64,000 nt of DNA. It comes from Escherichia coli (GTDB lineage: Bacteria > Pseudomonadota > Gammaproteobacteria > Enterobacterales > Enterobacteriaceae). The position numbers and the translations under genes were made by a program. Below the pieces are notes generated by a model. It did not search any database. It saw only the letters and a list, made by a program, of their open reading frames with translations, and had not been told where the DNA came from. The stretch lies in assembly GCF_003790525.1 (NCBI RefSeq), contig NZ_CP033635.1; one strand, 5' to 3'. Shown one piece after another: positions 14,420 to 58,616 of the stretch (the first letter of the stretch is position 1; the number at the start of each line of letters is the position of its first letter).

Positions 14420-14474
14420 TGACATCAGCGGCGGTATTTTCCGCCGCTGGGCTGATTTTTGATGGAGTACAGCA

Positions 14475-15440
14475 ATGTCAGACTATCAAATGTTTGAAGT
14501 ACAGGTGAACCAAATTGAACCGCTTACCGAACAGGTGAAACGCTTCACGCTGGTGGCAACCGATGGCAAACCATTACCTGCGTTTACCGGAGGAAGTCAC
14601 GTCATTGTGCAGATGAGCGATGGTGATAACGAGTACAGCAATGCGTATTCACTACTGAGTTCGCCGCATGACACCTCTTGTTATCAGATTGCCGTTCGGC
14701 TGGAGGAAAACTCGCGCGGCGGTTCCCGCTTTTTGCATCAGCAGGTAAAAGTGGGCGATCGGTTAACGATTTCAACGCCTAATAACCTGTTTGCGCTAAT
14801 TCCCTCGGCCAGAAAGCATCTGTTTATCGCGGGAGGCATTGGTATCACCCCTTTCCTGTCGCACCTGGCAGAGATGCAATACAGCGACGTCGACTGGCAG
14901 TTACATTACTGCTCACGAAATCCAGAAAGTTGCGCATTTCGTGATGAGCTAGTCCAGCATCCGCAGGCTGAGAAAGTTCATTTTCATCACTCATCAACCG
15001 GAACACGACTGGAATTAGCGCGATTATTGACGGATATCGAACCTGGCACACATGTTTATACCTGTGGCCCCGAGGCGCTAAATGAGGCGGTAAGAAGTGA
15101 AGCTGCGCGTCTGGACATCGCCGTCGATACGATGCACTTTGAACAATTTGCGATTGAAGACAAAACCGGCGATGCATTTACCCTGGTGCTTGCCCGTTCC
15201 GGTAAAGAGTTTGTGGTGCCGGAAGAGATGACTATTTTGCAGGTTATTGAAAATAATAAAGCAGCGAAAGTGGAATGTTTATGTCGTGAAGGGGTATGCG
15301 GAACCTGCGAAACGGCAATACTGGAAGGTGAAGCTGACCATCGGGATCAGTATTTTAGCGATGAAGAGCGTGCCAGCCAGCAAAGTATGTTGATCTGTTG
15401 TTCGCGCGCGAAGGGTAAACGCCTGGTGTTGGATTTGTAG
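14475..15440 (+). CDS. yeaX: carnitine monooxygenase reductase subunit YeaX (CntB-like), 321 aa
   Basis: Full-length ORF; plant-type 2Fe-2S cysteine cluster (CREGVCGTCE) and FNR-like flavin/NAD domain. Confidence 0.92.
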   Translation: MSDYQMFEVQVNQIEPLTEQVKRFTLVATDGKPLPAFTGGSHVIVQMSDGDNEYSNAYSLLSSPHDTSCYQIAVRLEENSRGGSRFLHQQVKVGDRLTISTPNNLFALIPSARKHLFIAGGIGITPFLSHLAEMQYSDVDWQLHYCSRNPESCAFRDELVQHPQAEKVHFHHSSTGTRLELARLLTDIEPGTHVYTCGPEALNEAVRSEAARLDIAVDTMHFEQFAIEDKTGDAFTLVLARSGKEFVVPEEMTILQVIENNKAAKVECLCREGVCGTCETAILEGEADHRDQYFSDEERASQQSMLICCSRAKGKRLVLDL

Positions 15441-15443
15441 TTT

Positions 15444-15481
15444 GCCGAAGCCGGACTGAGCGCGCTCAGTCCGGCTTCGGA
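15444..15481. terminator. long perfect palindrome between convergent yeaX and rnd (probable bidirectional terminator)
   Basis: GCCGAAGCCGGACTGAGCGCGCTCAGTCCGGCTTCGG, about 18-bp perfect arms, in the 46-bp gap between the two stop codons. Confidence 0.6.
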
Positions 15482-15486
15482 AGATT

Positions 15487-16614
15487 TTACTGCGGATATT
15501 CCTGCAATAAATTGTGTAATGCTTCCGCCATCAGCTCACCACGCCAGCCGGAAATCAGCTCCGGCAAATTGTTCTGCGGTTTCAGTTTCCAGTGCCAGTT
15601 CAGCAGTTGGTTGATTTGCCGACGCGATGCCAGCAATTCGGCGCTGATCTTGTGCGTTTCGCTCACGTCAGTAATCAGCGACTTAATCGCTTTAAACGCT
15701 TTACGATAACCCGGCATGTCCATCAGGTTAAGCATCGGCTGCGGTAAGGCCTCTTCCGGCAATGTCTGCGCTTTTTCCACCAGCGCCAGCAGCGTTTTAC
15801 CGTGAAAGCGGATTTCGCTACCGGATAAACCCAGGCTGTCCAGTTCGCCTAAACTTCCCGGCATATAACGCGCTACAGACCACAAATGCTCTTCACGCAC
15901 GACAAAGTTCACTGCCAGATCGCGCTCCCGCGCCTTGCGCAGTCGCCAATCGGCTAACAGTTGCAGACAGGCCAGTTGGCGTGTGCGTAACTGCCAGGCA
16001 TTGGTGATATCACGCCAGGCATCTTCCGGCGCAACGACTTCCTGACGACGCATTTGCATCAGGCGGCATTCATCCAGCGCCGCAGGTAGCCAGCCGGAGG
16101 CCTCCGTTTCTACCATAAGCTTGGCGGTGATCGGTAACAAATACCAGACATCCGCCGCTGCGTATTCACACTGACGTTCGGTCAGCGGTCTGGCCAGCCA
16201 GTCGGTGCGCGATTCACTCTTGTCCAGCGTAACGCCGGAATACTCTTCCACCATGGAAGCAAAACCCCATGACATCGGGCGTCCGCAGAAGGCAGCAAGG
16301 ATTTGCGTGTCAATCAGGGGTTGTGGTAATTCGCCAAAGACATTGAGGAACACTTCCAGATCTTCACTGCCCGCATGGAGAAATTTTGTGATGGACGGAT
16401 CGCGCAGGATCGCTTTCAGTGGTGACCAGTCGGAGATCCCGAGAGGATCAATTAGCGCCAGATGCTCACCATCAAAAAGTTGAATTAGACCTAGCTGCGG
16501 GTAATAGGTGCGCGTACGAACAAATTCAGTATCCAGGGCTATCGCCGGAAAGGCACGGACGGCTTCACACAAAGAAGCCAGCGCATCGTCCGTGGTAATC
16601 ATTTGGTAATTCAA
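15487..16614 (-). CDS. rnd: ribonuclease D, 375 aa
   Basis: Full-length ORF; MNYQMITTDDALASL...; start codon is TTG (plus-strand CAA at 16612..16614), as known for rnd. Confidence 0.95.
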   Translation of the reverse strand: MNYQMITTDDALASLCEAVRAFPAIALDTEFVRTRTYYPQLGLIQLFDGEHLALIDPLGISDWSPLKAILRDPSITKFLHAGSEDLEVFLNVFGELPQPLIDTQILAAFCGRPMSWGFASMVEEYSGVTLDKSESRTDWLARPLTERQCEYAAADVWYLLPITAKLMVETEASGWLPAALDECRLMQMRRQEVVAPEDAWRDITNAWQLRTRQLACLQLLADWRLRKARERDLAVNFVVREEHLWSVARYMPGSLGELDSLGLSGSEIRFHGKTLLALVEKAQTLPEEALPQPMLNLMDMPGYRKAFKAIKSLITDVSETHKISAELLASRRQINQLLNWHWKLKPQNNLPELISGWRGELMAEALHNLLQEYPQ

Positions 16615-16635: not shown

Positions 16636-16663
16636 GTCAAAAAAAACGCCGGATTAACCGGCG
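16636..16663 (-). terminator. intrinsic terminator downstream of fadD
   Basis: Minus strand ACGCCGG-TTAAT-CCGGCGT followed by TTTTTTTT. Confidence 0.7.
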
Positions 16664-16683
16664 TCTGACGACTGACTTAACGC

Positions 16684-18369
16684 TCAGGCTTTATTGTCCA
16701 CTTTGCCGCGCGCTTCGTCACGTAATTCTCGTCGCAAAATTTTTCCGACGTTAGATTTCGGTAACTCATCACGAAACTCCACCAGCTTCGGTACTTTGTA
16801 GCCCGTGAGCTGACGGCGGCAAAAAGTCACCAGTGACTCTTCGGTAAGCGATGGATCTTTTTTCACAACGAAGATTTTCACCGCTTCACCACTAGAGCCG
16901 GAAGGTACGCCAACAGCCGCGACTTCCTGTACGCCAGGATGCTGCATGACGACATCTTCAATCTCGTTGGGATAGACGTTAAAACCGGAAACCAGAATCA
17001 TGTCTTTTTTACGATCGACAATGCGCAGGAATCCTTCTTCATCCATCACCGCGATGTCGCCGGTGTGTAACCAGCCATTTTTGATGATTTCATCGGTAGC
17101 ATCCGGACGCTGCCAGTAACCCAGCATCACCTGCGGTCCTTTGACACAAAGCTCACCTGGTTGACCAGGTGGTACTTCATTATCATCATCATCCACCAGT
17201 TTGGCTTCCGTCGACGGCACCGGCAAACCGATGCTACCACTATGATAATCAATATCATACGGGTTAACGCTCACCAGCGGCGCACACTCGGTCAGGCCAT
17301 AACCTTCCAGCAGATACTGTCCAGTCAGTTTCACCCAACGTTCTGCCACCACTTGCTGAACAGGCATCCCTCCGCCTGCGGAAAGATGCAGACTGGAGAA
17401 ATCCAGCTGCTGGAACTCTTTATTGTTCAGCAACGCATTGAACAAGGTGTTAACGCCAGTGATAGCGGTAAACGGATATTTCGCTAACTCTTTTACCAAC
17501 CCTGGAATATCGCGCGGGTTAGTGATAAGCAGGTTCTGCCCCCCCAGTTCGATAAACAGCAGGCAGTTAATGGTCAGTGCAAAAATGTGATACAGCGGCA
17601 GCGCCGTCACCACCAGCTCTTTGCCCGGATGCAACAGCGGACCATAGGTCGCGTTAACCTGTTCCAGGTTCGCCAGCATATTGCGGTGAGTCAGCATCGC
17701 GCCTTTCGCCACACCAGTGGTACCGCCGGTGTATTGCAGGAAAGCTAAATCTTCCGGCACCAGTTCGGGTTTGACGTACTGCATCCGGTAGCCGTTGTGC
17801 AGGGCGCTACGAAATGAAATGGCATCTGGCAGATGGTATTTCGGCACCAGACGCTTGATGTATTTAACAACGAAATTGACTACCGTGCCTTTTGCCGTAG
17901 ATAGCTGATCGCCCATACGGGTCAGAATTACGTGCTGAACGGCGGTTTTATCAACCACTTTTTCCAGAGTGTGGGCAAAGTTAGACACGATAACAATCGC
18001 CGATGCGCCGCTATCGTTAAGCTGATGCTCAAGTTCACGCGGGGTATACAACGGGTTAACGTTTACGACAATCATCCCGGCACGCAAAATGCCAAACAGC
18101 GCCACCGGATATTGCAATAAATTAGGCATCATCAACGCAACGCGATCGCCTTTCTTCAGTCCCAACCCTTGTTGCAAATAAGCGGCAAACGCGCGACTGC
18201 GTTCTTCCAGTTTGCGGAAGGTCATCACCTCCCCCATATTCACAAACGCGGGTTGATCGGCGTAGCGCGCGACCGACTGCTCAAACATATCTACCAGAGA
18301 TTGATAACGGTCAGGGTTGATCTCCGTCGGAACGTCCGCGGGATAACGGTTAAGCCAAACCTTCTTCAA
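16684..18369 (-). CDS. fadD: long-chain-fatty-acid--CoA ligase FadD, 561 aa
   Basis: ORF 16684..18435; the 561-aa product begins [33 protein letters not shown]..., implying a TTG start at 18369; AMP-binding motifs present. Confidence 0.93.
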
Positions 18370-58542: not shown

Positions 58543-58616
58543 GCCCGATGCGACGCTGTTGCGTCTTCTCAGGCCTACGATTGTGGGGCGGACAAGGCAT
58601 TCGCGCCGCATCCGCC
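58543..58616. repeat. pair of REP (repetitive extragenic palindromic) sequences in inverted orientation (BIME-like)
   Basis: GCCCGATGCGACGCTGTTGCGTCTTCTCAGGCCTAC (58543..58578) and inverted copy GGGGCGGACAAGGCATTCGCGCCGCATCCGCC (58585..58616) match the REP pattern GCC(G/T)GATGCG...GCCTAC. Confidence 0.7.

Follow-up and report, generated by a model that had tools for sequence, protein, structure and literature searches.

A perfect palindrome between convergent yeaX and rnd in Escherichia coli SMS-3-5: a rare allele of a REP-derived, probably protective 3' hairpin

Introduction

What does a perfect palindrome do in the narrow space between two convergent genes, and does its perfection mean anything? 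We have taken up this question in a 64-kb stretch of Escherichia coli DNA (the window), which is identical to NC_010498.1 (E. coli SMS-3-5) and whose RefSeq annotation confirms the gene names yeaX and rnd. The first of these genes, yeaX (14475-15440, + strand, stop codon TAG at 15438-15440), encodes the carnitine monooxygenase reductase subunit. The second, rnd (15487-16614, - strand, stop codon TAA at 15487-15489), encodes RNase D from a TTG start, giving a protein of 375 aa. The PGAP annotation of SMS-3-5 and other strains begins rnd at an ATG at codon 5 (371 aa); the curated K-12 RNase D has 375 aa, in agreement with the TTG-start ORF of the window.

Results

A predicted stable hairpin fills most of the yeaX-rnd gap

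The sequence CCGAAGCCGGACTGAGCG|CGCTCAGTCCGGCTTCGG, at 15445-15480, is a perfect palindrome of 36 nt with 18-bp arms and no spacer, as read from the sequence and by a repeat finder, and it is bordered by two unpaired bases, G15444 and A15481. A reading made from the sequence alone (hereafter the sequence-only reading) had correctly reported a perfect palindrome in this gap, with arms of 18-19 bp over 15444-15481. The arms are in fact 18 bp, since the outermost base at each end of that interval is unpaired, and the string written out in that reading carried one central GC too many (39 nt written, 37 present). Its distance of 46 bp between the two stop codons is accurate (15441-15486), and most of this gap is palindrome, which begins 4 nt downstream of the yeaX stop codon and, on the other strand, 6 nt downstream of that of rnd. 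The spacing between stop codon and hairpin is unchanged across all E. coli variants described below. The palindrome is the longest inverted repeat of the window, and the search for other copies that had been proposed found a single copy there, with up to 3 mismatches allowed, and one locus per genome among E. coli genomes. The chance of a spacerless palindrome with 18-bp arms in 64 kb is ~64000/4^18, or roughly 1e-6.

RNA from either strand is predicted to form a 16-bp stem with a GCGC loop. In the yeaX transcript only, the predicted hairpin is extended (15439-15486, + strand) by five A-U/G-U pairs beyond a G.A mismatch and takes in two bases of the yeaX stop codon. The folding calculation that the sequence-only reading had put forward as a check bears out a very stable structure: -40.1 kcal/mol on the + strand with the five flanking pairs included (z -6.6) and -32.8 kcal/mol on the - strand (z -7.6), with none of 200 shuffles as good in either case. 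As single-stranded DNA the palindrome folds at -21.1 kcal/mol (z -7.9). The only Rfam matches, to the families mir-423, mir-2064 and P13, reached 17-23 bits against gathering scores of 70-100, and we rejected them as chance hairpin matches.

The perfect form is one rare allele among several

The exact perfect palindrome, searched with a 48-nt query, is present in 24 of 5,426 complete E. coli genomes; the two places per genome returned by this query are a self-match on the opposite strand. A 76-nt query around the gap is 100% identical in 23 genomes. In 1,316 genomes (about 25%), those with a short form, identity to the query is 95-99%; in about 4,060 (about 75%), which carry a long form of 83 nt, it is 80-95%. 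This majority form, found in K-12 MG1655 among others, reads GCCGGA[TGTGGCG]CTGAGCGCGC[C]CAGTCCGGC; compared with SMS-3-5 it has 7 additional nt in the left arm and a C instead of T15466. The short form, carried by UTI89, ST131-type strains, SCU-485 and DETEC-S792, has lost the 7 nt and retained the C, which leaves one A.C mismatch. The 7 nt in question are TGTGGCG in K-12-type genomes; their deletion, whose junction is between 15455 and 15456 of the window, removed both the REP core motif and the asymmetry of the stem. The T that completes the palindrome, at 15466, pairs with A15459 and is a C in all other sampled short-form genomes. The alternative perfect allele, CTGGG/CCCAG, occurs in 0 of the 5,426 genomes. 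Only 32 genomes are at least 99% identical to SMS-3-5 over a 901-nt region, which is consistent with a single lineage for the perfect form.

We compared the predicted stability of the alleles over the segment from stop to stop (+ strand / - strand, kcal/mol). The perfect SMS-3-5 allele folds at -35.0 / -32.8, the short form at -31.0 / -31.9 and the K-12 long form at -36.9 / -34.4. A rare variant in RMDEC465 (locus L088, 61-143), in which CTGAGCG replaces TGTGGCG (GCCGGA-CTGAGCG-CTGAGTG-CGCCCAG), looks as if 7 nt of the short form had been duplicated in tandem, and has the stablest hairpin of all variants, at -40.3 / -41.4. A strong hairpin (-31 to -41 kcal/mol) is thus present in every E. coli variant. 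The sequence-only reading had taken the perfection of the repeat to suggest selection or a protein-binding site. Given that the perfect form is so rare and is no stabler than the common allele, its perfection ceases to be an argument for selection or for a protein site with dyad symmetry; a 7-nt deletion and one transition in a REP-derived element suffice to produce it. Perfection is most likely a rare, strain-specific mutational accident, neither a conserved nor a selected feature.

The gap probably held a REP element before it held a perfect palindrome

To place the locus among its relatives, we scanned for RNase D proteins in one genome per species, which gave 80 loci, and read the DNA downstream of each rnd stop. 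Sister Escherichia carry a REP-like element in the same gap. In E69 (L005) the element is CCGAAGCCGGATGCGGCGCTGGTTGCGCCTTGTCCGGCTTAC, and those of Escherichia sp. E1V33 (L006) and E. albertii are similar to it. Used as a query, the E69 element matches E. coli genomes at a median of 7 places each, with a maximum of 14. The best of these matches, 83% identical over 41 nt, is AGCCGGATGCGGCGTGAACGCCTTATCCGGCCTACGAA, which belongs to the yahG-yahI BIME cluster of Nissle 1917 and is a canonical REP of the Y type. Alignments to the canonical Y-type REP were judged against both plain and palindrome-preserving shuffles. Similarity is significant for E69 (score 36, p<0.0005), the K-12 form (score 25, p<=0.0005), E1V33 (p<=0.0005) and E. 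albertii (p about 0.005); SMS-3-5 and the short forms show no significant similarity in this alignment (score 14, p about 0.2), and we accordingly dropped direct REP membership of the SMS-3-5 allele. The K-12 form contains GCCGGATGTGGCGC, which differs from the REP core GCCKGATGCGRCGY by one mismatch and is the only such match within the 14 kb around it. The feature table of NC_000913.3 holds no repeat features, even at obvious REPs, so its silence at the yeaX-rnd gap is uninformative.

REPs are flanked by a GTAG/CTAC tetranucleotide that is recognised by the RAYT transposase. No E. coli form has this tail at the gap, where all end in GGCTTCGG; the last bases are GGCTTAC in the elements of E69 and E. 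albertii and GGCCTAC in canonical copies. Several other attributes are listed as criteria for REPs in PMC12306157. The SMS-3-5 palindrome is extragenic, lying wholly within the 46-bp gap, and from its position it would be co-transcribed with its neighbors. It is also short enough (36 nt, for a range of 14-40 nt) and forms a stem-loop of -33 to -40 kcal/mol. It departs from the list in two of five criteria: it does not resemble the family consensus, as its K-12 and E69 orthologues do, and it occupies a single locus per genome where REPs have many copies. The SMS-3-5 allele is REP-derived, and is not itself a REP.

Because the SMS-3-5 sequence is unlike the REP consensus and is single-copy, its REP ancestry rests on orthology. 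REP-likeness in K-12 and sister Escherichia, and not in the short forms, indicates that the long form is ancestral. A REP element in the yeaX-rnd gap probably predates the split of E. coli from its sister Escherichia species, and the SMS-3-5 palindrome would be a relic of that element, its core lost through the 7-nt deletion and its last mismatch through a subsequent C->T change at 15466. This ancestry, and the placement of the hairpin only 4 and 6 nt from the stop codons, are absent from the sequence-only reading.

The likeness to Y-type REPs is clear in several respects. Like them, the element is extragenic, about 36-43 nt long and situated at gene 3' ends, and it forms a GC-rich hairpin from an imperfect palindrome; orthologous copies carry the core GCCGGATG(C/T)GGCG...TCCGGC, and those of E69 and E. 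albertii also have a CTTAC tail. Unlike them, the SMS-3-5 copy is without 7 nt of the core motif, has CTTCGG in place of a GTAG/CTAC tail, and is single and perfectly symmetrical, whereas REPs usually retain a mismatch or bulge. A canonical BIME at 58543-58616 gives a reference within the window: of its two REPs, which are inverted, one is GCCCGATGCGACGCTGTTGCGTCTTCTCAGGCCTAC and the other reads as the reverse of GGCGGATGCGGCGCGAATGCC..., and the K-12 counterpart is found between yebE and yebF. In K-12, the pykA-lpxM gap contains one REP (L089, 47100-47134) whose stem is nearly symmetrical, GCCGGATGCGGCGAAAACGCCACATCCGGCCTAC; it starts 7 nt past the pykA stop and is a further case of a REP less than 16 nt from a stop codon.

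Symmetry was approached in steps

The alleles can be arranged as three successive changes. A REP-type tail, GGCTTAC in E69 and E. albertii, corresponds to GGCTTCGG in E. coli, which lengthens the stem against CCGAAGCC; the 7-nt bulge was then lost, and a C->T change removed the final mismatch. The outer stem is CCGAAGCC/GGCTTCGG in E. coli and CTGA(A)GCC/GGCTCAG, with a bulged A, in two sister lineages (L006 and L007). Read as a record, they would run from stem extension in the E. coli ancestor, through bulge loss in the yeaVWX-lacking (UTI89/ST131-type) and SMS-3-5-type lineages, to C->T in the SMS-3-5 clone.

Template switching turns quasipalindromes into perfect inverted repeats (PMC7202029) and is the favoured model for perfect inverted repeats in proteobacteria (PMC5941160). 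As in quasipalindrome correction (Ripley, 1982; Dutra and Lovett, 2006), the three successive Escherichia changes, TTAC->TTCGG first, each raise symmetry. Unlike in such correction, the 7-nt deletion left an A.C mismatch, and the fully switched product is found in 0 of 5,426 genomes. Retention of this mismatch after the deletion means that no single full-length template switch took place. From the pattern of changes, the deletion and the transition may have arisen by template switching, although a plain deletion and a neutral transition within one clone would give the same pattern. That the locus is a stepwise record of a REP quasipalindrome driven to perfect symmetry by replication template-switching, with the perfected 16-21-bp stem behaving differently from a bulged REP, is an idea that we regard as doubtful.

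The hairpin stays with rnd

Strains that have lost yeaX offer a view of which gene the hairpin serves. The yeaVWX genes are absent in about 1,050 of 5,425 E. coli genomes (UTI89, ST131-type strains and SCU-485 among them), where dmlR/dmlA pseudogene remnants adjoin the last ~20 nt of yeaX (window ~15417-15440; L002 3823-4070; L086). The hairpin and rnd are intact in these genomes. Retention of the hairpin in ~1,050 genomes despite the loss of yeaVWX indicates that its main client is likely rnd. We considered the palindrome as a breakpoint for the yeaVWX deletion and rejected it for UTI89 and SCU-485, in which the junction is ~20 nt upstream, within the end of yeaX. An independent deletion in a cryptic-clade strain, Escherichia sp. 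MOD1-EC7003 (L052), joins dmlA by its 5' end directly to the left margin of the REP-like element, into which the rnd frame of this strain extends by 7 codons. The allele of this strain is of the long form, yet with the T of SMS-3-5.

A hairpin of some kind lies within about 60 nt of the rnd stop in 80 of 80 enterobacterial loci. REP-like palindromes occupy the position in Escherichia and in Citrobacter (about 13 loci, with yeaX convergent there too); GTAG...CTAC REP pairs occupy it in Enterobacter; and classical bidirectional terminators, with A-tract, stem and T-tract, occupy it in Klebsiella, Kosakonia and Kluyvera. From these sequences, the position after rnd seems to need a hairpin, which is of unrelated kinds among genera.

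Transcription of rnd passes the hairpin in K-12

The sequence-only reading had described the palindrome as probably a bidirectional terminator and mRNA 3' stabiliser, with T-tracts so weak that termination might be inefficient. The tracts are weak. On the + strand, the tail AAGAUUUUAC has 4/8 T, and its UUUU run starts 5 nt past the stem, displaced by AAGA; on the - strand, the tail CAAACUAC (CAAACTAC) has 1/8 T. The palindrome has the GC-rich stem-loop of an intrinsic terminator and is without the 7-8 nt U-rich tract directly after the stem. A terminator consensus scan did not call it, and did call the fadD/sroD and yeaW-yeaX hairpins nearby. A stable hairpin without proper U-tracts should terminate transcription inefficiently. 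As to the two nearby hairpins, the sroD sRNA (RF00370, 115 bits; 16640-16725, - strand) lies at the 3' end of fadD, just upstream of rnd, and ends in a hairpin and T8 terminator at 16666-16644 that matches a K-12 Term-seq end at 1888018. In the 55-nt yeaW-yeaX spacer, a hairpin of 10 pairs (8 GC) precedes a T-run and resembles a terminator (14425-14450, + strand), which is odd in that YeaW and YeaX are carnitine monooxygenase subunits for which co-expression is expected.

Mapping of 3' ends had been proposed as a check, and published K-12 data bear on the question through the orthologous allele, which is 7 nt longer. Term-seq under three growth conditions (Adams et al., 2021; PMC7815308) lists no 3' end in the yeaX-rnd gap of the K-12 long form on either strand; the only ends in the rnd region are an rnd-internal one at 1887883 and the fadD/sroD end at 1888018. 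In these media yeaX was probably silent and rnd expression low (56 reads per 800 nt), so the missing end counts for little in either direction. When DirectRNA-seq was run in the presence and absence of bicyclomycin, a Rho termination region emerged antisense to yeaX, with its best coordinate at 1886672 (-) (PMC7815308). The K-12 rnd stop is at 1886864, 192 nt before this coordinate, which derives from 800-nt windows and is imprecise. Reads upstream and downstream of the region changed from 56/22 untreated to 45/89 with bicyclomycin (Rho score 5.03, p 9.1e-8). SMRT-Cappable-seq recovered only the rnd TSS.

The rnd-strand RNA just downstream of the hairpin in the window (15185-15444, - strand, about 260 nt) is C-rich, G-poor and rut-like, with C/G of 1.7-3.3 that is highest 156-234 nt past the stem. 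It corresponds to the Rho termination region at 1886672 (-) in K-12. A Rho region ~190 nt past the rnd stop, together with no 3' end in the gap, indicates that rnd transcription passes the hairpin in K-12. The expectation of inefficient termination is thereby supported, on the rnd strand by read-through in K-12 and on both strands by the want of a usable U-tract. Of the double role first proposed, that of stabiliser fits a published class of 3' stem-loops (Dar and Sorek, 2018), and that of a strong two-way terminator is disfavored by Rho-dependent read-through in K-12, the outcome that had been named as counting against strong termination; it is seen for rnd only, with yeaX probably silent.

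Discussion

We propose that the palindrome of SMS-3-5 is a lineage-specific, symmetrised REP relic that acts as a protective 3' hairpin without a U-tract, with Rho termination downstream, and that its perfection is accidental. We put the probability of this reading at roughly 0.6. The palindrome would be transcribed into the 3' UTRs of both genes and fold there into a very stable hairpin, which RNA polymerase would mostly get past. On the rnd strand, Rho would terminate transcription within the next ~150-250 nt, in C-rich RNA antisense to yeaX, as in the K-12 orthologue and, by extension, in SMS-3-5. Exonucleases working 3'-5' would then trim the transcript back to the hairpin barrier, which would set and protect the mRNA 3' end. 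Terminating ribosomes would have to melt the base of the stem, and expression may also be dampened in this way.

The arrangement resembles that of the protective stem-loops described by others (Peters et al., 2012; Dar and Sorek, 2018). Once trimmed, Rho-dependent transcripts end at stem-loops that are stable, have no U-tract and withstand PNPase and RNase II (PMC6061677); rut sites lie just downstream of these stem-loops, 24% of which are REPs (Dar and Sorek, 2018; PMC6061677). Like members of this class, the SMS-3-5 hairpin is stable, has no U-tract and no upstream A-tract, and is followed directly by RNA with more C than G; downstream read-through is sensitive to bicyclomycin in the K-12 orthologue. 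Unlike them, one hairpin here serves two convergent genes. By analogy, the hairpin would be a barrier to exonucleases, and the barrier model predicts a steady-state 3' end at the stem. No such rnd end appears in the K-12 Term-seq tables, where rnd is weakly expressed.

Alternatively, the stem could act on translation. Where a REP lies under 16 nt from a stop codon, ribosomes are reported to stall and translation to fall (Liang, Rudd and Deutscher, 2015, as summarised in PMC12306157). With its start only 4 nt (yeaX) and 6 nt (rnd) from the stop codons, distances that are read directly off the sequence and are constant among E. coli variants, the stem lies within this range for both genes. Terminating ribosomes must melt the base of such a stem, which may dampen expression, and by analogy with REPs the hairpin might stall them and, with the involvement of tmRNA, lower YeaX and RNase D output. 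The short distance also follows simply from a gap of 46 bp. As the explanation of the element, attenuation is a tentative possibility that we would not favor, but it is compatible with the protective hairpin and could be additional to it. A hairpin with no function at all, a decaying REP that persists in a short gap and affects neither mRNA, would account for the free strain variation (an indel, substitutions, a duplication-like variant) and for the different, unrelated hairpins of other genera. That all E. coli variants keep a strong hairpin, and that 80 of 80 loci have some hairpin right after rnd, disfavors a neutral relic, as does the rebuilding of the outer stem with other bases in L006 and L007; we consider such a relic unlikely.

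Termination at the hairpin itself can be imagined in two ways. A Rho-independent bidirectional terminator common to yeaX and rnd, in which the hairpin and flanking T/A tracts release polymerase both ways, would share the position and hairpin strength of known examples. The very stable GC-rich hairpin on both strands, the UUUU run on the yeaX strand, and the classical terminators at the same site in Klebsiella, Kosakonia and Kluyvera are in its favor. The SMS-3-5 hairpin has neither A-tract nor U-tract on either side, and its tails and silent consensus scan, together with the Rho-dependent read-through and empty Term-seq tables of K-12, make intrinsic termination quite improbable. In a second model (Ju et al., 2019; preprint of Wang et al.), described in bioRxiv 10.1101/2022.10.23.513370, the hairpin pauses polymerases from both genes and head-on or trailing collisions release them. 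The geometry fits this model, with a hairpin-encoding element that stands between convergent genes and is unlike an intrinsic terminator. But the class is described as Rho-independent, while the rnd strand of K-12 has a Rho score of 5.0; collisions need simultaneous transcription, while yeaX has no Term-seq 3' end in LB or M63; and about 1,050 genomes keep the hairpin despite deletion of yeaVWX. Release by collision is, in our estimate, distinctly improbable. Finally, the palindrome could act as DNA, either through binding of a dimeric protein, with selection on the site, or through cruciform formation. It has a perfect 36-bp dyad symmetry and a DNA hairpin of -21 kcal/mol, and a GC-rich center such as that of this palindrome disfavors cruciform extrusion. 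Binding of REPs and BIMEs by gyrase, IHF and Pol I has been reported (cited in PMC12306157). Allele frequencies speak against a DNA-level role: perfection is confined to 24 of 5,426 genomes, and 75% of genomes carry a 7-nt asymmetry in one arm. The sequence is also single-copy, and the site between two 3' ends offers no promoter context. We regard a role as DNA as extremely improbable.

The palindrome is a real but ordinary feature, and the finding is of little importance by itself. It does illustrate how a palindrome that catches the eye by its perfection in a single genome may be an uncommon variant of an everyday REP-type 3' hairpin, and that populations should be compared before selection or protein binding is inferred. 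Should the template-switch reading be true, the perfected stem could stall the terminating ribosomes of both genes more strongly, or become a substrate for RNase III. The three natural alleles (bulged, one-mismatch and perfect) could be swapped to test how stem perfection near stop codons affects expression of RNase D and YeaX. For E. coli, the yeaX-rnd gap would add one more locus to the class of protective hairpins that have no U-tract and stand upstream of Rho termination sites.
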